Source: Yuukianura sp. NJ FZ-2021 (Eukaryota). From it: DNA of 64,000 nt. Below the pieces are notes generated by a model. It was not told where the DNA came from and searched no databases. It saw only the letters and a program-made list of their open reading frames with translations. The position numbers and the translations under genes are program-made. Location: the NCBI GenBank assembly GCA_046563655.1, contig CM102290.1:992001-1056000 (forward strand), in the 5' to 3' direction. Positions 13,984-36,007 of the stretch are shown here, in pieces (within the stretch, counting starts at the first letter, position 1; the number at the start of each line of letters is the position of its first letter).

Positions 13984-16900
13984 TTAAAGACTTGATTGAA
14001 TACTGACGATTAGACTGGCAAGGAGAATCAGCGGAACAGAAATTGGTAAAAATTGAGACGATCCGCTAGAAGTCTCTGATGGTACCACAAGCTCTTGTCC
14101 GTAGCGCGCCAAAAAATCTAAAATTACGCCATTGCTCCATCCAAACCCAATGACAACTTCGTACTCCCCTCCGCCTCCGGCATTTCCTGGTGTAACAACA
14201 TCATACTGCAAAAGAAAAACAAACTTGATTAACTTTACTCTTAACTACTAATTGAAAACCATCAACTATAACATGCGTTTCCTACTTTCTCCATCATGAT
14301 GCCGTTCTTCTCATAGTGTTTAAAGTTTCCAAGGGTCCATCTTTGGGCAATATCAAAAGCTAGAGTTTGTGCAGTCTTGCTACTGGATTTGGCCAAAGCG
14401 TCAACAACGAGATGCTCCAAAGGAGCCCAGCCGTTGGGGTAGTCCCATTGCTCGCCTAAGTTTGCCAAAAACGTAACGATTAATGCTTAATTTCCGGAAT
14501 TATTAATGTTGTTTTACCTACCAGTCTGTTGAAGTGAAGTGGGCACTCCGCCTGGATACACGAGGGCTCCACTCTGGCCGAGATAGTTGACAACACGGTC
14601 AACCTGGGTGTCGTTGACCCCGGCCCAGAGTGGAATGACATTGCTCATATAGAACCCTGTTCTTTGCTGGCGTTCCTTCAAGTCATAGTCAAACCATGCT
14701 CCCTGTTCTTCATTCCATAATACTGCCATGATAGCATCTTGTAGCCTCAAAGCGTAGTCAGTAAATTCGGTAACTTTTTGAGAGTTTCCAATCTAGGCAA
14801 ATAAAAACTTCGATCTAGAAAAAAATTTCATAAAATAGTATTTAAAAAAAATCAAAAGAAGAGTTACCTCTGTTGCGAATTGGGAGAGAATGATGGCATT
14901 CTTGTACAAGTAAGCGTTCAAATCTGCAGGTACGACATTCGTTGTTCGAGTGTGGACGAGACTTCCTGTAAAATCAGACAGCAGTAATTAATTGTTAATT
15001 CAAAACTCATACCGGAACATTACTCAACTAACCAGTTTCTCCTTCCGGTACATTCCACCACCTAGAGGAGAAATCCCATCCAGATTCTGCTCCAGAGTGA
15101 AGGTCGGTATACAGTCGAGTCCGTTCGGCTTCTGGAAGGTGGTGAGCTAGCTCATAATCCTCCCTAAGAACAACAAAATTGTTAAAAAATTATACATGTC
15201 TTAGTTAAAACCAGTCAAGGTTCGTAAACAAACAAATTGTTTATTCTACACCAGGTTGTCCAATAACTCGACGTTTTTAATTTTCTCAAATAATTTGCAA
15301 AACCTGCGTCGCCGTGCCTTTCTATGGTAATGATTTGTATGTAATTTAATAAGAATTGGGGGAAAACGGAGGGGGGGGGAGGAGGGGAATTGTTTGCAGG
15401 AAGATTTGGGTTATTGGACAACCTGTTGAAGGAAATACACTTCGTTGTATTTCGGTTGTAAAGGCACCTTGAGGGTAGTTCCATAATTTGTTGTGTACCT
15501 GAAGGATTCTGGGCGCGGTTCATTCTTCGTACTGTTGAAAATAGCTAATTTGTGAACATTGTTGTTTAGATCGGTGACTGAAACCATGTGGTGGTCAATC
15601 CAGTATTTAAATTCCTTCTCCAGGGTTGGGAAAACCTTGTTCACATACGTCAGTACGTCGCCGCCATTTTTCCGCAGTGAGTCCACATAATTTTGAACCA
15701 TAGGAATCAATAATGGTGGCTGACTCCGGCGGTAGTAAATGCGACCTCCATTAGGAACAAAGCCATAGTCTTCATTCTCAACCATCTCCAGAAAATTGTC
15801 AATCATTCCTTGAACAGTGACGTTCATTTGCGAATGTAGGAGTCCAATTTGAATCCAGTATGAATCCCAGTAATAGAACTCTCTAAATCTCCCTCCAGGA
15901 ACAATGAGTCCATTGCTAACGTATATAATTGAGAAGCGTTCGGGTTCCCTCTTCACTGCCTCTTTGATTTTCCTCCCTAATTTATTCCAGAATTCGTTGA
16001 GCTTGAGTCCCCAGTTGTACAACTTAGGATCTTTAATTTTCTCCAGAAAAGCGGGATCTGGAATCCAATCTTCTGGAAGCCATGGTTCAAATTCGTTTCC
16101 TAAAAAAAACAAGATTTAAATTGAAACAGATTCACTTACTACAAACAATATAGAAATGTGTAAACGTTTTCAAAGTCAAAAAAGTTGATCTGATTACCTT
16201 GATCAAAATACAAATGGACGAATTGTCGAAGATCATCTTGACTTGGATTCTCTAACCGATCAAATGCTGTTAGAACAATGTCCGGTGTGTAGCCCGGACG
16301 AATAGACATATCCACAAATGTTTTTGAATCTTTGAACAACTTTGCCATTTGAATAGTTTCTAGGAACTTCCCCGTGCAGTAGATTTCACTAAAATTAAGA
16401 AAAAATCAAATTAAATTTTAAATCGAACAGATAACAACGAAACCATCACACATTCCAGTAGTATTGAATCAGCACTGGCGAGGCGTCTTTTAGCCACACG
16501 TCAACGTAAAGGTCAATGTCATGAACTAAAGTGAAATTTCGTCGTGCATACCAAATAATTCATGTTTGAACGTGTTTTTAAAAAATCGTCAGTTTTACGA
16601 TTTTAAGAATGCTACCGGTGAGAGGTGTAACTGTCATCGTTAATTTTTTCCAACCTTGTATTTCAATTGAAGCGCTGCTGTCAAGTAAGCGAATTGTAAG
16701 CGAATACGAATGAGCAGTGCTACTCTGATTTCAATGTCAATACAATCGCCTCATTTCCAACTTCCGCAATTGAACTTCATTTACACGAGTCACGCTTTTT
16801 CACAATTAATACTTAAACTAAAGTGTTAAATTTTTACTTATGTTGGAGATGAAATAGGCCCAAGTCCAGAAGCATTCTTCTGTACAAAAAGCAGGACAAA

Positions 16901-17254: not shown

Positions 17255-20200
17255 CTACTTCTTCTTGAAAGATCCTTTTACTTTCACTTTGTCCGGCTTC
17301 CCTCGAAGAGCATTTGTACGTCGCATCTCTTCGATGAAGTCTTGATGTTCATCTCTGTAAAAAAATTATAAAAATGAGAAACATTCGAATGATTGAAGTA
17401 CTCCGTGGTTCAGAATTATTCTACTCAATTAATTCGAAACATGTCGTTAACAAACTATTGTCCTTGACCTATTAACCTGCAGAGTAAGTTACAAAAAGGA
17501 TTGACCTTGCCCTAAACTACACACAATCTACTCTTGAACTCATTATTTACCTGGTTCAATTTTTTACAAACCCAGTAGTATTTGTTTCAAAATTCAGTCG
17601 TGTATACTCAAACTTAAAAAGTTTTTAAAAGTTAAATGTTAATAAGTTAAGCAGAGACACACTGACAGTCGTAGCCTGCGCAATTGAAAATAATGGCAGT
17701 AAAGAGTTTACAACAAACAATTCCAGCAGTAGCTTTCCTGGAAACTCATTCCCAAAACCACTTCATTCCATATCAATAGGAACATCAGTAAGCCTATTCA
17801 GCCTATTCAGGTGATGATCATTTCAAATTTGAGTGACGCCAAGTTAACAAAAGTGTGAAAACCTACTGGCTAATGAGCATCTCAACGAAGATTTGTCTAT
17901 GTAGGACGTCTATGTTTGTCTTAGAAGAGGTTAATTATTACTCTCAGACTAAACTGACCTATTCACCCTACAGCAGCGTCAAAACATCTCAATCTCTCAC
18001 AACTAAAAATTAAAAATTTAATTATTACGCAATTTGGACTTTAGCGTCATGACTTCGGTATTTTTCCGCGTCACATTTTTTATAAAAACGTACTTGAGAA
18101 CGACAAATGACAATTGAATTTAAATGGATAATAAGATAGGGTGCTGCTGGTGTTAGTAGATAAGTACCGTATAAACTGGATTGGATTAAACACATCCACT
18201 CAACTTACAAACACGGCTAAAATTTCGAGAAAAAAAATGCACCGCTTACTCAAAATTTTGGAAAAGTAGAAACTGTAGATTTCGAAACTCTGGAACTAAT
18301 TACTGATCGCGTGACACCTTTGTGAAATAGGGTAAGTCCTGGACACAATGAATGTAAATGGGTACTGGACTGGACTGGAGTGGACCGCTGGACAGGGACT
18401 GAGTGACTGAGGGACAGGAGATGGCAGACAAGAGGTTTTGGTCTGTGCCACCTCTAGTAAATGTCACCGAAAATAAAAATGGAACTAAGACATCAGCCTT
18501 GGCGGGACACTTCAAAGCGCTTTGCGTGTCGTGGCTCTAAACCTGTGACCGGTAGCGTCACTATGTATTGCCTAAACGCTGTAAATTGGCAAATGCCCAC
18601 CTCACCAGACAGACAAGCCGGGCGTTCCGAAGTGCTGTTCTGTCTGGAATTGGATTTCAGCCACATCTTTCTTGGAGCCCATCCCTAGTTTACATCAATG
18701 ACAAGACAATGCAATATGCAATTGAGCAAGTTTTTGCGAATGGTTTTCTGACCTTCGGTAATATGGAACGTATCGTACATTTGCATTTAATGCCGAGGTG
18801 GAAATAACATCTAAAGATGCACTTATACATTAGGTATACTGATAACAAGTGCGCACTTCGAATTAACTGGAATTGCTCGATGAGATCCTAAGATGGCAAG
18901 AGTCGCACGCGCAACACGGAAAAATCACGCACGCAAGCAGGCTTTCGTAGAATTTACGATATCAAAACAGCGATGAATTTTTCATGCATAAATGTGAAGT
19001 CTTCAATACGACGGTCAGGGTGGCGCAAAACATCAAGGAGAAAATGACGTCCGAGGGAATTTCAAACAAAAACTGATTTGTACGGAACGAATACTGAGAA
19101 TTCAGACTATAAATGCTAATAGCGGCGACATTCAAGGTTTGCTGAGTTTTTCTTTAACAGGTTGGGTAATACCTCATGTTTTTTTCGATTTTGCAAAAAA
19201 AAAGAAAAGAAAAAAAAAGAAAGTATCTTTTCATTTCGGGGTATCATTCATAACAATACAGCTAGTTTTTTTTAAATTTTGCATACGAATTGGTACCAAT
19301 TTTTCGGATTAATACTGAATTGGTGCTAATTTTTTTTTTGTCAACAAGCGAGGTAGTACCCAACCTGCTAAAGAAAATTAACTTTTCGTTGTCAAGGAAC
19401 CATGGCGACATTAGAGATAAGTCCATCCATACTAATGGTATGGATGGACTTATCTCTCATACTAATAATGTAATGTAGGGTATGCTAGCCAAGGTCAGGA
19501 GGTCAGTGGTCGGGAACAATGAACTTATATACGTCTGTACTGAAAAAATACAATCTCGGCTCTTGAGTCCAGAGTCTTGGTTGTAGTAATTTAATTTTAG
19601 CCATTAACTTTTAGTTTCCTATCAGCCATAAAATTTAACAAAGGCAGACAACAGAGGACAATAGAAAATACAAAGGTTCTGCTACCTCCCATAAAAATAT
19701 AACCAATGGACACTTTTGTCTTCGTCTGACCTGACTAATTCCCACATAATTATAAATAATCACGGAAAATTCAGCTGAATACAACTAGGAAATTCAGGCT
19801 ACGACATTCCCAGTAGTTATAAATCGAGCATGTAGCACGACGAAGGTTATAAGTTGTTAGAACTAATAATATCATTACTAGACTTTATGACGAAAATGAT
19901 GAAGTTGCAATCTTAGAACAAGGTGGATTCATTTCATTCATTTAGTCTGCACCATGTTCATCTTCAAACAAGAAAATTCATTGAAGAAGCTCCAAAAATC
20001 TTATACTATGCGTCAGTTTCTTTTAATGCATCACTCGACAAAATTTGTCTCTGTCTACGGATCAAAAATAATTGAAAGAACACATGAACACTTTAACCTT
20101 GGAATTATACTTGTTTCGACACTCGTGTCTCTTCGTGATATAGCTGGTTAACGTAAATCGCTAAGGTGGATGAATTTTTACGTTGATTTCTTTGGCATTT

Positions 20201-20898
20201 AAAGGAGTATTTGAGTAACGCTAGTATGCCCACGATTTTTTATGATTTCATTGCACGGGATTTATATAACAGACGTAGGTACGCTCACATCACACCGTGT
20301 GATGTGTGAATGTATCTACGACTGTTATTGAGGCAAATGATTCAAGGTATACATGGTGTTATTCACACTGGGTATAACTTGAATCATTTGCCTCAACGCA
20401 AAGTGTTGAGACAAATGATTGTTTATAAAAAATAACCATCGATAATTGATATTAACCTTAAGTCTAAACTTCATCACCTTTTCCATGTTTCGTCAACGTG
20501 TTAGTTTAGTTTTCCAAATTAAAATACTTGCCTATAAAGCCCGTAGTCCCTTAAATGCTTCATCAGGAAATGAGTCTCTACGTGTCTAGGATAGTATTCA
20601 ATGACACCAGGGTCTTTGTGATACGGTTGCCTTCCGAGTATCTGTCCCACCTAAAGTATAAAAATAGTGTCAAATCAATTCGATACAAGTCATCATCCAA
20701 AAATGACAATCTTCATTCAATTCACGCTCGGTCAAGTATAAGATAGGATGTAAGTTGTATTCTTACCTTGGCATGTCTAGGTTTTGCCAGCGGTTTAACG
20801 ACGTTTCCGAAGATTTGATTGCTTAGCCTCACCATCCTTTTGGCATAGGGTGTATCATTTTTTATTAATTGCAGGTATCTGTAGAATCCAGACGTCAT
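17255..20898 (-). CDS. mRpS33: Mitochondrial ribosomal protein S33 (116 aa); exons 20898-20767, 20650-20532, 17354-17255
   Basis: Manual splicing gives MTSGFYRYLQLIKNDTPYAKRMVRLSNQIFGNVVKPLAKPRHAK|VGQILGRQPYHKDPGVIEYYPRHVETHFLMKHLRDYGLYR|DEHQDFIEEMRRTNALRGKPDKVKVKGSFKKK*. The Y..RM.RLS..IFG, YP.H and GLYRDEHQDF..E...LRGK motifs match MRPS33. Intron 2 has a GC donor. Confidence 0.9.
19148..19377. mobile_element. Small inverted-repeat element (MITE-like) in the mRpS33 intron
   Basis: TTTTCTTTAACAGGTTGGGTAATACCTC (19148-19175) versus GAGGTAGTACCCAACCTGCTAAAGAAAA (19350-19377): 28-bp inverted repeat with 2 mismatches. Confidence 0.55.
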
Positions 20899-21292
20899 GT
20901 TTTCTTGAGAGCTCGGTCAGTGAGGTCAAGGCAGTAGACAGTCAAGTTAATACCGGTACTTCCTTACGATTTACGCAACAAAACAACAAAAAAATCAAAA
21001 GTTAACTAAAGGTTCGCCCGAAAAATATTGTTGATTACAACTTGTCTATGCCTTACCCTGTTCCGTAAGTATTCGCCCAGTTGTTTCCCGATCTAATAAG
21101 TTATAATAAACCGGTTGTAAACCGCCCATACTGATAATAGCGAAGCAATAGGCCCCCCGAAGGGGGATTGTTCCCCCACTTTCCCGCCTCCCCCCCCGGG
21201 GGGGAGTGGGGGTGTGTTTTCCCCAGTTTCCCGCCCCCCCCCGGAGTAGTGGGGGTGTGTTCCCCCCACTTTCCCGCCCCCCAGGGGGTTTT

Positions 21293-21857
21293 GACAGGTG
21301 AGACGTGACAGCTGAGGCGTGACAGGTGACACCCGGCAGTTGACACTTGAGGCTGACAGGTGACACCCGGCAAGTAACAGGTGACAGCTGACACCCAGCA
21401 CGTGACAGGTGACACCCGGAAAGTGACACGTGAGAGGTGACACCCGGCAAGTGACAGGTGACACCCGGAAAGTGACAGGTGACAGGTGACACCCGGCAAG
21501 TGACAGGTGACACCCGGAAAGTGACAGGTGACAGCTGACACCCAGCACGTGGCAGGTGACACCCGGAAAGTGACAGGTGACAGCTGACACCCAGCACGTG
21601 GCAGGTGACACCCGGAAAGTAACAGGTGACAGGTGACACCCGGCAAGTGACACGTGACACCCGGCACGTGAGTGACAGGTGACAACTGACACCCTGCAAG
21701 TGACAGCCGTGACAGGTGACAACTGACACCCTGCAAGTGACAGCCGTGACAGGTGACACCCGGCGCGTGACAGCCGTGACAGGTGATATCCGGCGCGTGA
21801 CAGGTGACACCCGGCACGTGACAGGTGAAGTGACAGATGAAGTGTGACAGGTGACAG
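21293..21857. repeat. Complex minisatellite built from GTGACA / GACAGGTGACACCCGG units (central tandem repeat of the HINE)
   Basis: Dozens of GTGACA-containing units. They explain the overlapping Cys/His/Val-rich ORFs in all three minus frames. Confidence 0.9.
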
Positions 21858-22649
21858 TTGAGTGTGTTAGTCAACTGCGTAATGGATTTTTTGGTAAGCA
21901 GGGAACCAAGTCCCATACCAACAGTGTTGGTGGATATCCACTTTTTCGACATTTCATCCACGGCTGGATATCCAGTGGAAGAAATGGACGAAATGGATGA
22001 ATCCAAAGGGGCGGAGCTTTGCCCTCTGAATTTGAATTAATTGACTACAAACAACTAAAAAAACCTGAAAACACAGTTCAAAAACAATGTATATATCGTT
22101 TTTAAATACGTTTTAAATAATATATTAACTATAATCGCGAAAGTAAAGCTTTCTGATATCATTTCGTAAATTTAAATTTGAATTGATTTGAATTTCGCGC
22201 AAAATTTGTGATTTCTTCCATCCACTTTTAGTTTCGTCCATTTGGGGTGCGTTTCTTCCAGTGGATATCCACTGGAAGTGGCAATTAAGCCACTGGACGT
22301 TTAAGCGTCCACCAACACTGCATACCAATTGCCTTTCCAGTCTCACAAGCAGAGTTTTTGTTACACACACTTGCATTACAAATGACCTTTGAAATCCATT
22401 TTGACCCGGAAGCAGGTGACCTAGGGTCACACATTACACACAAAAGTTGTTCCCCTCGATGAGATGAACAACTTTTGTAGAGGTCATTTTCCATGTTACC
22501 GGGGATGAAACCGGTTGACCTTGACCTTTGACCCGGAAGGAGTTGACACCCGGGGGTCATATTCAATAGTGACCAAGCCCGGGTCATGACATGGTCACTG
22601 GTGAAAACCGGAATCAAATCGGACCAGTAGTTTCTGAGATAATTAATCT

Positions 22650-22710
22650 GGACAGACAGACAGACAGACAGACGGACAGACAGACAGACGGACAGACAGA
22701 CAGACAGACA
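22650..22710. repeat. (GACA/GACG)n microsatellite
   Basis: About 15 tetranucleotide units, directly visible. Confidence 0.95.
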
Positions 22711-23188
22711 AACCACTTTTATCATAATAGCTTCGCTATTATAATAATTAGTTAATCCGTAAATTAACTAATTGTTACACCGCAATTTAATTCAATGTTT
22801 ACCAAATGCTAAACATTCGCATGCACGGTAAATGATCCTCGTTGTAGCCACACAATGTATCCACTTGGCAAGTAACATGGGTGGCTACAGAATGCGGCTA
22901 CTTATGCTGCCATTTTAGGTTAAGCGTTGGTTACCCTACAGCGGCTACAAACGGTGCCGCTCAAGTTTAGCTGCCTATTATATTCGCACAAGATGGCTGG
23001 AGTACTTCAGTTTGCGGTTACATTGATCTTCGTTATTCCGTATGTCAACCATTTGTAACTGAAACTGAAAGAAAAAAATAGATACCAACGAGGTTCCTAA
23101 AGAACGAGAGTAAACAAAACTTTTTTTTTCGTTTTTTTCCGCATGTGCGCCTTGCAGCTACGCTCCGTCAACCCAAAATGTATTTTTG

Positions 23189-23226
23189 CTCTTTGTAAAA
23201 TTTGTGGCCCTTAAAAGGGCCTTTGG
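23189..23226 (-). promoter_or_regulatory. Histone-type 3' end processing signal (stem-loop plus HDE-like AAAGAG) downstream of the transposase
   Basis: Minus strand reads CCAAA-GGCCCT-TTTA-AGGGCC-ACAAA-TTTTAC-AAAGAG: a 6-bp stem with a 4-nt loop and the consensus flanks of the metazoan histone stem-loop. Confidence 0.8.
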
Positions 23227-23244
23227 GTACGGAGATTAAGATGT

Positions 23245-24390
23245 TCAGATATCAGGGTCATTTCGGTTGAGGTTCTTCGTTCTTCGGTGCTCAAAATTTT
23301 CTCCATTAACTAAGGCACATTCCTCCAGTCGCGATAGAAATCCGGCTCTCACATTTTTCAGCATCTCAGGGGTAATTGTGTTGATTAAGTTTTGAATTAG
23401 GATTTCCATAGGAGCAGCAGTGGTCGGTTTGTCAAATATTTTCGCTATTTTGTTTTTAATATAAGGCCAGAGAAAGAAATCACAAGGAGCCAGGTCTGGA
23501 CTTCTGGCAGGCCAACGAATAGGTCCCCCCCTTCCAATCCACCTTCCAGGAAACTCCATGTTCAGAAGATCCATCACTGGTCTTGTGTAGTGAATTGAAG
23601 CGCCGTCTTGTTGGAAATATACTTCATTAAATGGAATTCCTTGCTGAACACAGTAATTTTTCAACTCCGGGAGCCAGTCTTCAATCATTGTTTTATAGTG
23701 TTGCGAGTTAGCGTTGGTATTTAGGTCGAAAAAGTGAATCCAAACTTGATCGTGAAACATAGCTCCCCACATCATCAGCTTCACTTTCGAGGTTGACTTA
23801 CAGGCGTTGACAAATTCAGGGCGAGATTTGGAATAGATCTTAATTTTCCCTGCTGAATTCAAGTAGACAATAGCCTCGTCTGTAAAAGCTGTGTGCCGGA
23901 ACATTGTTGGATTTTGATTCCTTCTGTTCATAAGGTCAACACAAAATGAGGCTCTAGTGAAATGATCAGTTTCCTTCATTTTGTGGTGATTTCGGACCGA
24001 GTAGAGCTTGATTTTTTCTTCGTTTAGCATTTTCTTCACCGATTTCTTAGAACACGGACTTGGCAGTTGAGCACCTAACTGAATTTGAGATACTGGTTCC
24101 CGAGCGTTTTCATAATTTTGTACCAGTTGGACTAAAGCTGTACGGTTCTGTAGAGTGGTTACTGTTTTGCGTCTGCCTGGGGACTTCTTATCAGCCAGGG
24201 TATTTTCATTGTCAAATTTGGAAACGATTCTTTTGATTGTCGTAAGTGATAATGCACGTTGAAATTGTCCAAAGAAATCTTCACGAACACGCATCGCACG
24301 TCCTCTATCAAGTCCTGCATGTTCAAACCATTTTTGGACGATGAAGCTTCGTTCAGTTAAAGTTGTGTGAGTCTGCGGAGTTCTATTCAT
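23245..24390 (-). CDS. DD41D transposase (381 aa, uninterrupted)
   Basis: N-terminal HTH region with an SPGRRK linker. Catalytic FTDEA...FQQDGA...WPARSPDLAPCDFFLW, with 41 residues counted between the second and third Asp. Confidence 0.93.
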   Translation of the reverse strand: MNRTPQTHTTLTERSFIVQKWFEHAGLDRGRAMRVREDFFGQFQRALSLTTIKRIVSKFDNENTLADKKSPGRRKTVTTLQNRTALVQLVQNYENAREPVSQIQLGAQLPSPCSKKSVKKMLNEEKIKLYSVRNHHKMKETDHFTRASFCVDLMNRRNQNPTMFRHTAFTDEAIVYLNSAGKIKIYSKSRPEFVNACKSTSKVKLMMWGAMFHDQVWIHFFDLNTNANSQHYKTMIEDWLPELKNYCVQQGIPFNEVYFQQDGASIHYTRPVMDLLNMEFPGRWIGRGGPIRWPARSPDLAPCDFFLWPYIKNKIAKIFDKPTTAAPMEILIQNLINTITPEMLKNVRAGFLSRLEECALVNGENFEHRRTKNLNRNDPDI

Positions 24391-25964
24391 AGTTCACCAA
24401 TTTTCTGTCAAAAAAACAAGTTTTGGGTAATATAAACATTAATTAAAGTCATACGGTTGGTAAACACCGACATACTTTACAATTGAATCAATGAATTCTC
24501 ATTTACTTACGTTTCCAGTCAAAACGAACTGTCAGTGGTCCAATTTGATGGTCCAGCGTAGCTGGCGGGCGGTAGAATTAATTAGTTAATCGAAATTAAC
24601 GAATCAGATGATGTGACGTAACCGTAATTGGCAGTGAAAGTGGTTTGTGAGTGTTAAAGAACAGAAGTGTGAAACCGGAAAGTGTAAAGTGGGTGAACCG
24701 TATGTGGAGGGAAATTTTTTCGCGCGCAATCTATTTTCGAAATTTTTTACTCTCGTTCTTTAGGAACCAAGTAAACTTTTTCTGTTTCAAATTTTTGCAT
24801 TCGCGCTATGTCGAAATATGCTGAGATCATACGTGAGAACCAGACAATAACTTTTTAGATCAATTAATTTAATTAATTCACAAACTTGCTGATGCTAACA
24901 CGCGAAACTTGTGTTTTATTAAAGTCTAAAACTGTAACAATTCATGTCGAAAATGTAGACAGGGATTTAAATAAAAACATTACAAAGGCAGAACAATACA
25001 TTTGACGTTTTGAGAGTAAAAAGTTATAGTAAACGCCTTTCCGGTTATTTCTTTTCAATAATTCGACGACCAAATTAAATGTTATTTAAATGGAAAATAG
25101 TGCTCTTCGTTTTGTTTTAAACAAAATTCGAGAATTATAAAAGCCGCATGCTCCTGCAATTCTACAAGTTCATCTTTTTCCTTCTTGTTTTATTGTATTA
25201 ACTGCGTTATTATGCGCAAGTGCTCACGGGATTTTGTCACCGTATTTGGAAACCACTGTAGCATTTTTATTCTGTGAACGTAATAAGTTACCTGAGTGCA
25301 TCCAGCATTTCTTCAATTGTATCGCCATGTCCATAACTTCCAAAAATTAGCATACGTCATATTCAAGGGCACTGTGTCTCTTTTGTGCTTATTTTAGACA
25401 AGGAGTGGCTCATAGGATCCACTTGTTAAGTAAATTTGCTTTGCAAATTAAATTGGACATCACCTCTTGAACACTTGAATTCAAGTATTTTCAAAGCACT
25501 AAAACCCAGTAACAACCTTAGCATCATCTCCATTGTGTTCATCTTTTGGAATGACAGTTGATGCAATTCAAAATTCAAAAGCAAGGTCTTACTTAGGGCG
25601 ACAGATTAGTCTTGGACGAACAGTTTCTCGGATCAAGTTAAATTATAGTCCTTGTACTGTATTTTTGTGTGTTTTTTTTTCATGAAAACGAAGGAGACGC
25701 TAATAACATTGGAGGTTCCATCTTCTCGCCTTTTGACATTGAAATCGTGTTGAGTAAATATCAAAATCTTGCCTGTTTCATTTTCTTAACAGTTTATCAT
25801 CAACAGTCCTTTTTGTTGCATTCAAGGACCTAAACTTAAAAAAAAAACTTCGAATTCGACACGGAAAGTTCTAAATCACCGCCTGTTAAGTGTTGTCCAA
25901 AATTGCGCAACAGTAATTACAATAAAAACGCAACTTTTCCTGCCCAAGACATTCAAAGACGACA

Positions 25965-28900
25965 ATGGGAGCAGAACATAGCAGGTAACTTTTGAAATTT
26001 TTTTTGCCAATAAATTATAAGTTAGCACTGTGCACGAGATTATTCTTCATTCAAGTGCGGACTTGAGTGGGAAAAATTGAAAGTCAAGCACGTTTTTATC
26101 TTCGTTGTCTTTTACCTGAATCGGCGTCTGTTATTGGCACTCGGTCGTGGAGTGAGCATGTCCAGTGTTTTCGTAGAACAGTGGGAGAAATCAAACGAAA
26201 TTTTATTTGATAAATTTTGAAAACTGAGCAATAATTTTTTTTGAGTGCTCTGGATGATGTAATGACGACTACCAAGGTTAACTTTTTGATCAACGGAGTT
26301 GAACACAATGGTAAGAATAGACAAATCTTCCTATTTGTTTTAAAATCTTTTTTTGTTCCGTTTTGCAAATTGTAAAAAGTTTTCAATTGACATTCCGTTT
26401 TATTAGTGAACGCTGATTCTATGCCCCACTTGGGGCCAGAGACGCTGCTCGTCGATTACATTCGCGACGAAGCTGGACTTAAAGGAACCAAATTTTCCTG
26501 TCGAGAGGGTGGTTGTGGAGCATGCGTGGTGCAAGCCAAATCACGAGATCCTGCGTCTGGGGCTGACGTTATTCGGCCAGTGAACTCCGTAAGCAAGTCA
26601 CGTACAACATTGTCAATCACTATAGTAAAAGTATGTTTCCCTTGTTTGAATTTAGTGCCTCACTCCATTGTTTGCCTGTGATGGATGGGACATCACAACG
26701 ATCGAAGGACTGGGAAACAAGAAAGATGGCTACCATGAAATCCAGAAACGCCTTGTCACGTTTAATGGCACGCAATGTGGATTTTGTTCCCCTGGAATGG
26801 TCATGAACATGCACAGGTTAGCATTAGCGTAGCATAGGGTTTAGCCACTTTGAAGCGTTTTAAAACTTGATCTGGATGACTCGGCAGCTTAATGAGTTCG
26901 AGGACTGGAGCAAAGATGAAGGACATTGAAGATAGCTTTGATGGAAACATTTGTCGATGTACGGGCTATCGGCCCATTTTAGATGCATTCAAATCACTGG
27001 GAAGCGATGTTTCCGAAGAGCTCAGGAGAAAGTGTGCAGATATGGAGGTAATAATTGCGCGTGCGCAAGGCCTGATAGTGGGTGGTAGGTTACGTCACAT
27101 GGGTTATCAGTCAACTAAAGTGGATTTATCAATCACTTCAAACCGCGTCTAGCTTATTCCTAAAAGTATGAAATTCCCAATTGAAAAATTTAGCCTGGTT
27201 TCCAGCGGAAGTGTAAACATTATGTCATGTCATCATCAGTTGTCACTCATGTCTAATGAAAACGTTTCAATGTATTTGTTATAATCCAGGATTTCACCGG
27301 AAGTCCCTGTCCGCTGAAAACACAATGTTGTCAAAAGGGGAAATGCATAAAAGCGGCTGAAGAAGAGCATGACAGTTTTACCGATGTTGAACAATTGAAT
27401 CCGGTTCATTTGACCTTGAAAAACGGAGAACAATGGGTCAAACCAACACGACTGGAAAATTTCTTTTCCGCGTTGCAGCAGTTCGTGAGTGCCGGTTTAA
27501 CGTATAGACTCGTTGCTGGCAATACTGCAACAGGTATGAGCTCTAATGTTGGACAAAACCAACGAATGACGGATAATTTGGCACAAATATATTAAAAAAT
27601 AGCCTTCTTAACTTTACTGATACATCAAATTGTTCAGGAATTTACAAACATGATGGGCCGTATCAAGCATATTTGGATATTTCCAACATTCCGCAACTCA
27701 AAAGCATATCAATGGACAGTCGAGCAGTAGTTTTGGGAGGAGGAGTCACATTGGCCGTCGCAATTGAGCAGTTGCTTAAAGCTTCGACAATTGATGGATT
27801 TGAATATGCCGAGGACATTAGCAAACATATTGGTCGAATTGCGAACGTGCCTGTTCGAAGCGTAAGTCAATCGATCGCTGCACTCTTTCTCTCATCACTT
27901 TTTCTTGTAATGTAACTTTTTATCAAAGAACGGAACACTGGCTGGAAACTTGATGATCAAACACGACCATCCAGAATTTCCATCGGATATTTTTATGCTT
28001 CTGGAAACAGTCGGAGCATCTCTGAGCATTGGTAAGGTCCGGCAAGCCAATTTTTTAAATGCTGTTTTATACATTATATACAAAAAATTCTTGTTATGAA
28101 TCCAGCTTCTGCTGCAAATCTTCAACGATCATATCCTATTCTGGACTTTCTCAAATTGGACATGACTGGAAAATTGATTCTTTCCATTAATCTTCCACCT
28201 TTACCGAAAAGTAGAGGATACGTTCTAAGAACTTTCAAGGTTAGAAACATATTACATAAAAATCGAAGGAAAATACCATGAAATTATTTTTTTTTTGATT
28301 TGTTGCAGATCACCAGACGTTACCAGAATGCGCACGCATATGTTAACGCTGGCTTTCTTTTCTGCGTTGATGCTCGACGAAACTTCAGTATTCGCGAAAA
28401 GCCCTCCATCGTTTTTGGTGGCATACATCCTGATTTTGTAAATGTTTTTACAAAAAGTTTTGATGTTGACGTTTTAAAACAATTCGACTTTCATGTCCAA
28501 ATTCTTTTTTCAACAGGCGCACGCAAATGCCACCGAAATTTACTTTCTCGGTAAGTTCTTGGGCGACGCAGCCACGGTTTCTGGAGCACTGGATACGCTG
28601 GATCGTGAAATCGTTCCAAATCACCATCCGCCCGATGCGTCACCAGAGTATCGAAAGTCTCTAACGGTGTCACTTTTATACAAGGTACGGTTGCCAAAAA
28701 TGAAAATGCTAAGCTATAACTTTAAATTAATTCGGTCCGCCCGGCATTCCAAGGTTCCTTGACAACCAAATTGTATTTTCTACAACAGGTTGTCCAATAA
28801 CTCAAGATTTCCAAAAAATCTTACTTCAAACAAATTTCTACACCAATTCCTATTACTTGACATACAAAGCATGACCATAGAAAGGCACAGCAAGTTTTGC

Positions 28901-31900
28901 AAATTTTTTAACAAAATTAAAAACGTCGAGTTATTGGACAACCTGGTGTAGAAAAAACTATTTGTTGTTGTTTGTTTACAAACATTGCTGCATTTCTTCA
29001 GTAGTTGTTGATGTGTTAGGTTATTCTTGGAATTCTTGGAACTACGGCCCAATCCACGGTGCGTTCTGGAGCTGGTGACATTGAGCACAACGTTACTTAC
29101 GGCCGACAAACTTACGACACAGACAAAAAGGAATGGCCGCTCAATCAGCCGGTTTCTAAACTTGAAGCAACGGTGCAATGCTCCGGTAACTTCAAATTAC
29201 ATTCGAACATTCACAGTCAACTTATGCATTCAAAATTAATATAAACTATTGATTCAAGGCGAGGCTGAATATGTCAACGATATTCCCATGAAACCTGGTG
29301 AACTAGCTGCTGCTTTTGTACTTACCACTGTAGCAAATGCTCGTCTCAAGAGCGTCGATCCGTCAGAAGCTTTGGTAAGGTCACCCTACGAATGGAGTAA
29401 TGCAGAATTTTATGATTTTTCAAGTTTGTTAGGATTTGAAAATAAGTTAGGATAGGATTTTGAATTTGGTTGTTCGAATAGAGAATGCCCGGCGTCATAT
29501 CGTTTCTTCAAGCCAAGGACATTCCAGGGACCAACAACTACTATTTGTACTCTGCATTTCCAGAAGAGGTTTAAAAAAAAATTCACCGCACAACACAAAC
29601 GACGCGGCAAATTTGAAATTCATGTTACCGGTTTTTCTTAATTTAGATTTTTGTGACGGAGAATGTTCAATATGCTGGAGCACCCGTTGGAATAATTATT
29701 GCGGAGACTAAGGAAATAGCACTCCAAGCTACACGTAAAGTTCGAGTGACGTACGACAACATTAAGAAACCGATTCTGACAATTGCTGATGCACTGAACA
29801 AAGCCGAGGCTGAAGGAAAACTGTCCGAGTGCTTCCTGAAAGAAAAAGGTGAAAGTCCTACAGTGGCCACTGGCCAATCCAAACATACTATCAAAGGTGA
29901 AATGGAAATACTTGGCCAGTATCACTTCCAAATGGAGACGCATACTTGTCTTTGCGTTCCAACGGAAGATGGTATGGACGTCTTTGCTACTACGCAGTGG
30001 ATGGACCTTGTCCAGGCCACCATTGCCTCAATGCTCAAGATTCCAAACAATACGTAATCACTTCAAATCATTTTTCAAATTTCGACCAAACTATAATTTT
30101 TTTTGGGTTTTTGGCGTAGCATTAACGTCCAAGTTCGTCGTCTAGGAGGTGGATACGGTAGTAAAATTTCTAGAACTACGCATGTCGCATGCGCAGCTGC
30201 CCTGGCAGCACATGTAACCAACAAACCAGTTCGAATAGTTATGGACTTAGAATCTAACATGAAGATGATCGGGAAGCGTCTTCCTTACTTGGCAAAATAC
30301 GAAGTGACTTCTGAATTTCAAACGTTTTTTACAACCCATAGCTCAGTTCCTGGCTCTTTGATTCAAATTTTTTGTTTAGGTTGGATTTGATGACAACGGA
30401 AAAATTGACCGTCTTGATGCTCAACTATTTTGCGACGCTGGACTACTTTCAAACGAAATCACATCGGCCTTGGCCATGGTCTGCCTCCAAAGTTGCTACG
30501 AAACAGTTGGGTGGAAAGTGGCTCCAGGAGCAGTCAATACTAACAAAGTATCCAACACTTACTGTCGTGCACCAGGTAAAGTTCCTCTAATAATTTCAGT
30601 TCCTGGTGACCTTGACCATTTTGACACTTTGACCTTAGGAAGTACTCAAGGATTTGCTATTATTGAGACTATTATGGAACATATTGCATTCGAGTTGAAC
30701 AAGGACCCACTGGATGTGAAGATGACCAATCAAATCAAAACGGGAGACGCTATCTACAGCGTTCCAGGAACCAAGTTTGAGGGAACCAACTTAATTCCAC
30801 AAATGGTCGACGAAATGAAGAAAACAGCGGATTACGACGAACGCAAGAAATATATTGAGAATTTCAATAGCGTAAGTTGAGATATTGAAAGTTTCTGGTC
30901 AAAGATGGAAATTACATTTCATTTTTTAGGTTTAGGTTGACTAGGCTAAAAAATTATGATTTTGAATTTTCATAAGTCCGAATTTTATAATATAATTTTT
31001 GTATTAGACGAATCGTTGGAAGAAGCGTGGAATGGCCGTAATGCCAATGCGTTACCCGGTTCACTACTTCGCTGTGGCGTATCCAGCATTTGTTACAATT
31101 TATCACGCAGACGGAACAGTAGCCATTTCCCACGGTGGTATTGAAATGGGCCAAGGAATCAACACCAAAGTAAATCAAATTCAAAATGTCAAATTCAAAT
31201 TCAAAATTCAAAAAAAAATCAAATTCATAAAATCCAAAATACTAAACGTGAAAAAAATATTATGATTTTTTTTCTGCACATAGGCTGCACAAGGAGCTGC
31301 TTACGAGCTCAAAATTCCACTAGACAAAATTAAAGTGAAACCATCAAATAATTTGACATGTGCGAATGCAATGATTACGGGAGGAGCAATCACCAGTGAA
31401 CTCGTTACGCATGTTCGTACTTTTTAGAACAGTTTTTTAAACTTTCTATCAATCGATTTCATATTTAACTTGTTCACTGTCTTTCCAGTCGACTGTACAA
31501 GCTTGCAAAGTTTTGAATGAGAGACTACAACCTATCAGAGACAAAATTAAGGACGACAAGTGGGAGAACGTTATTGCCGCAGCACATCGGGAAGGAGTCA
31601 ATTTAGCAGCTCATCACATGTAAGCAAATTAGTATTTCCTTTAAAATTTTAAAAATTTTGTTCAAATTTTGATAACTCCGTTCTAAATTTTTAGGCCGAA
31701 TGCTTCCGATGACCTGCAACCATATGACGTCTGGGGGTTGACTGCTACCGAAGTCGAAGTGGATATGCTTACAGGAGAGTATAAAGTTAGTACATCCCTC
31801 AGCACAACGAATCCAGTGTACTCAAGCCTCAACGTCCTTGAATTAATTGAATTTCGGTTTTTGCTTTAAGATTGTACGCATGGACCTCATTGAAGATGCT

Positions 31901-34767: not shown

Positions 34768-36007
34768 ATGTCTAGTAAGAAGCCATAAATTGACTACAAA
34801 TTTACTTTGGTACGGAGAGTTTTTAATGTTGTTACTTTGTTTTTTACAGTATTTCGCTTAGCACTGGTGCAGATGAGTGTTGGATCTAGCAAAGCAGAAA
34901 ATCTCGCAAGATGTGCCAAATTAGTTGCTGAAGCAGCATCTAGTGGAGCTAAAGTCGTTGCACTACCGGAATGTTTCAATTCATCTTACGGAGTCGGTAA
35001 GAGACCAATTCAAAAACTTAAAATGCTATAAAATACATACTGTCTGAATGACAAGAAAGTACATGCTGAGTTAATTAACTTTGCAGATCATTTCCGAGCC
35101 TACGCTGAAAAAATTCCCGGAGGCACGAGTTGTGAAACATTGTCAAAGTTGGCAAAGGAACATGGGATCTATTTGATTGGTGGATCGATTCCGGAACTAA
35201 GCGAAGATGAATCTTGTATGTACAATACTTGTACAATCTGGAGTCCAATGGGAGAACTTTTAGGACGTCACCGGAAAGTTCATTTGTTCGACATCGACAT
35301 ACCTGGGAAGATTACGTTTCAGGAATCCAAAACTTTATCTCCTGGCTCCGAATTTACAATTGTACAGACTCCATTTTGTAAGTTTGGAATTGGGATTTGC
35401 TATGATCTGCGATTTGCGGAAATGGCACAGTGGTACCGCAGAAAAGGATGCGAGGTTTTGATATACCCGGGAGCTTTTAACATGACTACTGGTCCAGCTC
35501 ATTGGCAAATTTTGCAACAAGCAAGAGCCGTTGACAATCAAGTAATAACATCAAATTAACAACTAATTGTAAGCCCTGTTACAACTTTTTATATACAAAG
35601 TTTCATGTGATTTCGTTCTGGATTTAGCTATACGTGGCAACAGTTTCTCCAGCACGAGATGAAAAGGCTGATTATACTGCATGGGGTCACTCAATGGCAG
35701 TGGTACGATTTTGTTTTCTTTCAAATAAATTTGCCACAATTCCGGCCAACATTTTTCACTAACTTGTGATAATTTTTGTCGTATTGCAGGATCCTTGGGG
35801 TAAAATTCTGGTAGAAGCTGATCATACGGAACAAATAGTCTATGCAGAAATAAGTAAACAACAAATTCTTTACGAAGTTTTTTTTACTCCACTTTGATAA
35901 TCTCAATTAATTTTTTTTTACTTTAAACAGACTTAGCCTACATGAAGGAAATCCGTGAGAACATTCCGTTGACACGCCAAAGACGAGAGGAATTATACAA
36001 CAACTAA
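34768..36007 (+). CDS. NIT2: Omega-amidase NIT2 (nitrilase superfamily); multi-exon span
   Basis: [15 protein letters not shown] (catalytic E), [20 protein letters not shown] (K), GICYDLRF (C), [21 protein letters not shown] and AWGHS. Confidence 0.92.

Follow-up and report, generated by a model that had tools for sequence, protein, structure and literature searches.

DD41D transposons of the Visitor (VS) and rosa type are a defined family, with elements of 1024–2258 bp (PMC8472432). In histone genes, the signal for 3' end formation is a stem-loop that typically lies 23–31 nt past the stop codon and has G-C as the second stem pair and a U at loop position 3 as diagnostic positions; the pre-mRNA is cleaved 5 nt after it (10.64898/2026.10.14.759114). 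Sequences of human HERV1/LTR12 are mobile-element sequences that match part of this histone signal, so that pairing with U7 is possible (PMC11417402), and ENE triple helices of plants and fungi, for example that of the rice hAT element TWIFB1, are specialised RNA 3' elements located right behind the gene of a transposable element (PMC13541005). Here, we describe a locus in a 64,000-nucleotide stretch of DNA from Yuukianura sp. NJ FZ-2021 (contig CM102290.1, positions 992,001 to 1,056,000; the whole stretch is called the window below, and all positions refer to it), in which a divergent transposon with DD41D spacing, 1685 bp long, carries a complete histone-type 3' signal directly behind its transposase gene, as if the transposase message were to end like that of a histone.

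The likeness of this locus to the two last-named systems is partial. LTR12 has an HDE-like motif (HDE, histone downstream element) only, often several of them near the 5' end, and no hairpin for the stem-loop-binding protein SLBP; the effect described for it is the repression of transcription via NF-Y and not the formation of 3' ends, and it is a retroviral long terminal repeat, not a DNA transposon (PMC11417402). ENEs clamp and protect the poly(A) tail (PMC13541005), whereas the signal described here would replace polyadenylation; the structures of the two are unrelated, and the signal of the element, unlike ENEs, would borrow a cell-cycle-regulated pathway of the host.

The histone-type signal lies on the minus strand, in sense orientation with respect to the transposase open reading frame (ORF, 24390..23245), and between both terminal inverted repeats (TIRs) of the transposon. 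The TGA stop codon of the transposase (23247-23245) is followed by a spacer of 23 nt (23222..23244) with CCAAA at its end, and then by a stem-loop with a 6-bp stem and a 4-nt loop (23206..23221), recognised by its Rfam match, its sequence and its predicted fold. Read on the minus strand, the stem GGCCCT/AGGGCC is formed by 23221-23216 paired with 23211-23206, and the loop TTTA occupies 23215-23212; the second pair of the stem is G-C, and position 3 of the loop is U. The hairpin was present in both the minimum-free-energy and the centroid folds of the 3' region. It is followed by ACAAA (23201..23205), with a predicted cleavage site about 5 nt past the stem near 23201, by TTTTAC and, 12 nt after the stem, by AAAGAG (23189..23194), the candidate core of the HDE. 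The latter is the exact complement of the core CUCUUU of U7, a human sequence which may not be that of the host (PMC11417402). A preliminary description of this DNA, made from its letters alone, had listed the stem-loop with its flanks, TTTTAC and AAAGAG, as well as the distance of 23 nt to the stop codon, the sense orientation and the location inside the TIRs. All of these were recovered exactly, the motifs by the minus-strand read and the placement by the ORF and TIR coordinates. The distance of 23 nt falls within the 23–31 nt range of real histone genes.

The proposal that this is the stem-loop of the Rfam family Histone3 was confirmed by a covariance-model scan (Rfam cmscan). Histone3 (RF00032) matched at 23182..23226 on the minus strand over model positions 1-46 of 46, scoring 39.0 bits, where the gathering score is 34, with an E value of 6.4e-8, and it was the sole Rfam family above its gathering score anywhere in the 64-kb window. 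With up to 3 mismatches allowed, the 23-nt core of the signal had a single match in the window, and 100 dinucleotide shuffles yielded none. The signal is like that of histone genes in score, stem-loop, A-rich 5' flank, 3' AC, distance to the stop codon, and purine core. The difference is that it lies inside a mobile element, where the ORF ahead of it codes for a transposase instead of a histone.

The locus also differs from histone loci in its surroundings: there is no histone gene within about 5 kb, and no other Histone3 match in 64 kb. As the preliminary description had stated, no histone ORF was found nearby: in 18000-29500, where 32 ORFs reach 70 aa, Pfam detected no histone fold in the 29 that were scanned, the other three being two overlapping tandem-repeat frames and the transposase itself, and a wider scan across the window, which covered 16 out of 31 ORFs with 130 aa or more, detected none either. 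Neither AATAAA nor ATTAAA occurs in the 161-nt 3' non-coding part of the element, in which only AATACA, at 23184, resembles a poly(A) signal; this had also been read correctly before.

A probable origin of the signal emerged from a comparison of the locus with public contigs of four runs, X1, X2 and X4 of one sample (organism A, from which the window probably comes) and X5 of organism B, a close relative whose flanks are about 2% different. An assembly artefact could be rejected, because independent contigs from all four runs hold the same sequence. The signal lies in a host-like block (23183..23236, minus strand) common to other, mostly multi-copy, host loci. The similarity spans 23183-23226 at most of these loci and extends to 23236 at one locus found in both organisms. 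The summed contig depth in the bin 23184-23254 was 394.7, 2279, 1220 and 49.2 in X1, X2, X4 and X5, respectively, as compared with 61-78, 232-351, 175-267 and 1.5-6.5 in the neighbouring bins. The excess came from contigs that match only about 23183-23226, with two to three differences and one gap in the examples listed. On the HDE side, the similarity ended at 23183 in 4, 9, 4 and 5 contigs of X1, X2, X4 and X5, beyond which the flanks disagreed, and on the other side it ended at 23220-23226. As the contigs match up to 23183, the likeness runs through the downstream element, beyond the hairpin alone. Judged by sequence, the transposon has, in its hairpin, spacer and downstream element alike, a close copy of something that the host has in many copies.

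The signal of the element is thus nearly identical to the host versions. One of the differences is in length. An extra G after 23203 (giving ACCAAA in the RNA sense) accounted for 70%, 75%, 76% and 73% of the depth in X1, X2, X4 and X5, contributed by 2, 5, 3 and 3 contigs, respectively; the other host variants listed also exceed the element by one base, so that all of them have 1 nt more between hairpin and HDE. The limits of the multi-copy sequence coincide with those of the Rfam Histone3 model. Given the depth, the number of contexts and these Rfam-like boundaries, the simplest reading is that the multi-copy loci are the replication-dependent histone genes of the host, and that the whole cassette was probably captured from one of them.

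Alternatively, the loci that share the block could be another repeat, such as a MITE (miniature inverted-repeat transposable element) or a transposon family with a histone-like module, a copy of which became nested in, or recombined into, the element. Some of the block-matching contigs do depart from the canonical bases at the foot of the stem, their matches ending at 23220 or 23221; the 30-nt upstream loose ends have no recognisable histone stop region; two loose ends have a short motif in common, as paralogous repeats would; and a 13-bp inverted repeat brackets the block in the element. However, in nearly all contigs the similarity is limited to 41-44 nt, in agreement with the Rfam Histone3 model, and it stops short of the bracketing inverted repeat, unlike what would be expected of a MITE. 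Moreover, four to nine contexts per run and a high-depth canonical ACCA version fit tandem sets of histone genes. We consider a non-histone repeat as the source improbable.

The same comparison bears on whether the hairpin and the purine run could be a chance resemblance. Short hairpins are common, and one other hairpin of the strict pattern occurs in the window, at 27454. Likewise, a loose hairpin pattern matched the 3' flanks of related transposase genes (described below) nine times, as compared with 3.2 ± 1.7 times in shuffles, eight of the nine being AT-rich or otherwise unlike the histone hairpin. Against that, the Rfam E value of 6.4e-8, the absence of the core from all shuffles and the match of 41-44 nt, spacer and HDE included, to host loci with two to three differences and one gap leave almost no room for coincidence, and we rejected this explanation.

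The transposon that carries the cassette was delimited by contigs and empty-site joints as an insertion relative to the empty site (23084..24768, minus strand). In the transposase sense, its 5' TIR lies at 24743..24768 and its 3' TIR at 23092..23117; each is 26 nt long, and a repeat search found them to be 96% complementary. Eight bases of the element (23084-23091) lie outside the left TIR. The ORF list contains one intact transposase ORF (23245..24390, minus strand) of 381 aa followed by TGA, and the window contains one copy of the element. The residues D171, D262 and D304 have spacings of 90 and 41, which supports the earlier assignment to the DD41D type. All three coincide with invariant columns in an alignment with 28 relatives, and the transposase retains all 21 invariant columns of that alignment.

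Pfam gave no match to the transposase of the window at E ≤0.01. At E ≤0.001, the transposase matched 211 database proteins, with the best E value of 6.5e-45 and identities of 26-35%. Among the 29 aligned sequences, DDE_3 was found in 11, HTH_Tnp_Tc3_2 in 11 and DUF4817 in 19, and the nearest protein-atlas clusters are of the DDE_3/HTH_Tnp_Tc3_2 type and mostly arthropod. The assignment to Tc1/mariner follows from the DDE_3 and N-terminal helix-turn-helix domains of these homologues, and not from a direct match. Its sequence marks the element as a divergent transposon of the Tc1/mariner type in which the spacing is DD41D. It resembles the DD41D (Visitor/VS, rosa-type) elements in the 41-residue spacing, the third D, the short TIRs, the length of about 1.7 kb, the arthropod-type host and the single ORF of about 350-380 aa. 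It differs from them in that its transposase is at most 35% identical to any protein found and has no Pfam match, and in that no clean TA duplication is seen, the assignment to DD41D being by spacing. There is a TA at the left junction (23083-23084) and only an A at the right one (24769), so that a clean TA-TA duplication was not seen; the empty site reads ...GAT|AAG... (joint 23083->24769).

The end of the transposase has a peculiarity of its own. A C-terminal tail of 13 residues (23245-23283) extends beyond the conserved FEH motif, whereas the proteins of the relatives end a few residues after FEH. A related, internally deleted family in the host contigs (X1 record 5) loses similarity from 23283 on. 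The entire 3' end, from 23283 through the HDE, may be one acquired piece.

Several contigs provide information on the age of the insertion. A 1682-nt contig of X1 spans 23087-24768 with two differences, and the depth of the element in X1 is 54.9 as compared with 22-25 for its flanks, about twice as much. The contigs show only near-identical copies of the element and deletion derivatives, and the element is low-copy. In X2, the joint 23083->24769 skips exactly the element; its shorter side has 30 letters, one below the 31 letters that we used as a rule of thumb for a bridging joint. A contig that crosses the filled left junction (22900-23116) is present in X1 (record 1). In organism B (X5), a joint 23084->24770 also skips the element, with three letters between its sides and a short shorter side, and pieces of the element are present in that organism. 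The three extra letters may be the footprint of an excision or just an indel. As a filled junction (X1) and an empty-site joint (X2) coexist in one sample, and as the site is empty in organism B, these observations suggest that the insertion is recent and still polymorphic; alternatively, the empty-site joints could arise if the flank is itself a repeat. With its ORF intact and with these signs of a recent insertion, the transposon is young and apparently competent.

Organism B also contains an 857-nt internally deleted derivative of the element (X5 record 22), in which 23212 is joined to 24163 and 24403 to 24576. This derivative, which keeps 23086-23212, still has the HDE and the hairpin's 3' half where the intact element has them, indicating that the cassette is older than that deletion. 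The first breakpoint of the derivative falls in the loop of the histone-type hairpin.

To place the signal within the family, we used relatives of the element in metagenome contigs. A profile search with the transposase, aligned to 28 homologues, led to 487 confirmed relatives. The best 80 were analysed; 53 of these have a stop codon and a flank of at least 60 nt, and 42 a flank of at least 150 nt. The test for conservation of the stem-loop in related elements that the preliminary description had proposed did not speak for a trait of the whole family: in the Rfam search at E ≤1, Histone3 was found in 1 of the 80 distant relatives (L001) and was absent in 79, and L001 was the only relative with a hairpin of the strict pattern as well. 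AATAAA or ATTAAA was present within 160 nt past the stop codon in 21 of the 42 relatives with the longer flanks. A search of viral contigs for relatives returned only one irrelevant match of 22 residues.

The Histone3 match of L001 (2408-2453, plus strand) has a score of 23.1 bits, which is below gathering, and an E value of 0.036 over 4227 families, corresponding by our own arithmetic to about 1e-5 for the Histone3 family alone. The hairpin is in sense orientation, 145 nt past the stop codon and separated from it by a CA/CATA microsatellite; its stem is identical to that of the window element and its loop is TTTC. As the transposase is directly upstream, no histone ORF can precede this hairpin. 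The transposase copy of L001 is frameshifted. The contig stops 46 nt after the hairpin, and no TIR pair was found between the 5' region of L001 and its 206-nt tail. L001 also carries part of the C-terminal region of the transposase a second time, in inverted orientation (3-117 and 2137-2261), with 82 nt complementary at 93% and 33 nt at 88%.

The L001 protein shares 50-55% identity with the main clade of homologues, and the protein of the window about 30% with all of them, a pattern that indicates that L001 is no sister of the window element. Provided that both hairpins are parts of their elements, their acquisition was independent. As judged from the sequences of the relatives, the histone-type signal was not inherited from the ancestor of the family, and the observations agree with a capture from the host in one lineage and not with a feature that DD41D elements had from the start.

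What the cassette could do for the element can be proposed from the known pathway of histone mRNA formation. The cassette, which comprises an SLBP-type stem-loop and a U7-pairing downstream element, would have been copied from a host stem-loop locus, most simply a histone gene, and it occupies the usual position of a poly(A) signal, 23 nt past the stop codon of the transposase. It includes all that histone-type 3' ends are known to require. On transposase transcripts made by RNA polymerase II, SLBP would bind the hairpin and the snRNP (small nuclear ribonucleoprotein) of U7 would bind AAAGAG and the bases that follow. The transcripts would then be cleaved near 23201, at a distance of about 5 nt from the stem, to yield a non-polyadenylated mRNA, the stability and translation of which would depend on the histone pathway, in S phase and possibly in maternal stores. 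This processing is a prediction from sequence, and we would rate the odds as even that the SLBP/U7 pathway cuts the transposase transcripts near 23201 and that these are not polyadenylated.

During replication, cut-and-paste transposition can increase the number of copies, either when an element moves out of replicated DNA into DNA yet to be replicated or when repair uses the sister chromatid. The use of the signal, the coupling of expression to replication and the benefit to the element are what we infer, the latter two from the known behaviour of histone mRNAs and from cut-and-paste transposition during replication. In a broader proposal, which we put forward tentatively and which may well turn out to be wrong, a live transposon has hijacked the histone pathway, replacing polyadenylation by SLBP/U7 processing to obtain an S-phase-coupled and perhaps maternally deposited message; such a hijack would have arisen at least twice independently, in this element and in L001, and would be a recurrent resource hidden from poly(A) RNA-seq. 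The canonical features of the cassette, its match to host loci and the signs that the element is live count for use of the cassette, as does the occurrence of a second, unrelated member of the superfamily, L001, with an identical stem in sense orientation past the stop codon.

Pickup of host fragments by DNA transposons is well known. Such transduplication, in which fragments of host genes are captured, occurs for instance in Pack-MULEs. The cassette may likewise be a passenger, a piece of 44-54 nt from the 3' end of a host histone gene that was copied accidentally, for example by template switching in gap repair after excision, and that has no role in transposase expression, the transcripts reading through it or the copy being silent. 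As in Pack-MULE-type capture, a short host piece lies in a non-coding part of a cut-and-paste element. In agreement with an accidental capture, the signal is found in only 1 of the 80 relatives, the element is low-copy, and all host versions have a longer spacer between hairpin and HDE. The 13-residue tail of the transposase and a predicted 13-bp helix that flanks the cassette suggest a messy rearrangement of the 3' end, and the related host family, X1 record 5, diverges from 23283 on. Yet the piece is not a gene fragment, as in Pack-MULEs, but a complete RNA-processing signal, with hairpin, flanks and HDE, that is correctly placed and oriented: in sense, 23 nt past the stop codon and within the narrow range of histone genes. 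By a rough estimate, a random landing in the approximately 540 nt of non-coding DNA would hit this very place, in this orientation, in only a few percent of cases. Signs of a recent insertion with the cassette aboard, and the same arrangement in a second, unrelated element (L001), are also at odds with a mere passenger. On balance, we regard accidental capture as rather unlikely, though it is the alternative that has to be taken most seriously.

The 13-bp helix encloses both the stem-loop and the HDE. In the minimum-free-energy and centroid folds, 23234-23222 pairs with 23178-23164, its 3' arm (23164..23178, minus strand), in two segments of 6 and 7 bp separated by a 2-nt bulge; the upstream arm lies inside the host-like block and the downstream arm outside it. 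The predicted helix may have been left as a scar by the capture, or it may have a regulatory role in masking the site of SLBP. As a whole, the 177-nt 3' region folds unremarkably, with a z score of -1.64 and 15 of 200 shuffles folding equally well.

Several observations weigh against the proposed use of the histone pathway. The predicted 13-bp helix pairs the CCAAA flank of the hairpin and may hinder the binding of SLBP. The spacer that is 1 nt shorter than in the host, the low copy number of the element and the absence of Histone3 from 79 of the 80 relatives, which have been mentioned above, belong here as well. The lack of a poly(A) hexamer is weak evidence for such use, as 76% of shuffles of the stretch are also without both hexamers. 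We infer the histone identity of the multi-copy loci from their boundaries, depth and variety of contexts. A possible intron of 106 nt in the 5' untranslated region (UTR), read by eye (24405..24510, minus strand; GTAAGT at 24510, a pyrimidine run and AG at 24406-24405), would make the gene unlike histone genes, as replication-dependent histone genes are intronless. Finally, the element lies in intergenic DNA, outside a histone locus. The histone locus body aids efficient processing (PMC4896052). In flies with mislocalised FLASH or U7 snRNP, most H2a mRNA is nevertheless properly processed (PMC4896052), a result which indicates that the histone locus body is not strictly required.

If the cassette is used, it could also be used otherwise than proposed here, as a compact terminator against read-through between the element and the genes next to it, or as an entry into a small-RNA pathway that handles histone transcripts. 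Histone 3' processing in flies is coupled to transcription termination (PMC4896052), histone-derived Piwi-interacting RNAs have been described in a mosquito (PMC5416884), and U7 represses LTR12 via HDE-like motifs in human cells (PMC11417402). However, the sequence gives no pointer beyond plain mRNA 3' end formation, and the LTR12 case is one without a stem-loop and acts on transcription. Such a role appears even less probable than the origin of the block from a non-histone repeat.

The window is eukaryotic nuclear DNA with 39% G+C. Upstream in window coordinates, it contains a trehalase exon (15411-16115, minus strand), at most 56% identical to insect, crustacean and springtail trehalases, which indicates that the host is arthropod-like and that its own proteins are absent from the collection searched. 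On the other side of the transposon, Pfam identified exons of a xanthine dehydrogenase/aldehyde oxidase-type gene (26391-30880, plus strand) with the domain order Fer2, Fer2_2, FAD_binding_5, CO_deh_flav_C, Ald_Xan_dh_C and MoCoBD_1, and a carbon-nitrogen hydrolase exon (35032-35559). A tandem array found by the repeat search (21354-21835; 49-bp unit, 9.8 copies, 81% matches) yields long spurious ORFs in three frames. It is followed by a MITE-like palindromic stretch (about 21910-22330) with arms at 21965-21989 and 22247-22271 that are 88% complementary; further matching ends were seen by eye. A (GACA)n-type microsatellite, read from the sequence (22640-22710), lies between this stretch and the transposon. 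A loose end at 24724 in X4 resembles the MITE-like terminus, and the copy in question may adjoin, or sit inside, another transposon copy.

A search of the full-text literature, covering titles and the beginnings of abstracts outside the subscription journals, returned no transposase or transposon gene that ends in a histone stem-loop. The accessible parts of the DD41D literature that we examined make no mention of a histone-type 3' end, and the string 'transpos' is absent from the available text, supplements aside, of a 2026 eukaryote-wide survey of histone 3' processing (10.64898/2026.10.14.759114). Both parts of the arrangement, a Tc1/mariner transposon and a histone stem-loop signal, are known, and their combination was not found in print.

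If the signal is unused, the locus is a neat but ordinary case of the capture of a host fragment. If it is used, the element would be a simple case of a mobile element that times its own expression to DNA replication, and its transposase message a rare natural non-histone protein-coding message on the histone 3' pathway. In that case, poly(A)-selected RNA-seq would underestimate the activity of such elements. Being a small, self-contained unit of about 45-55 nt, the cassette would also be a practical natural example of the portability of the histone 3' signal.

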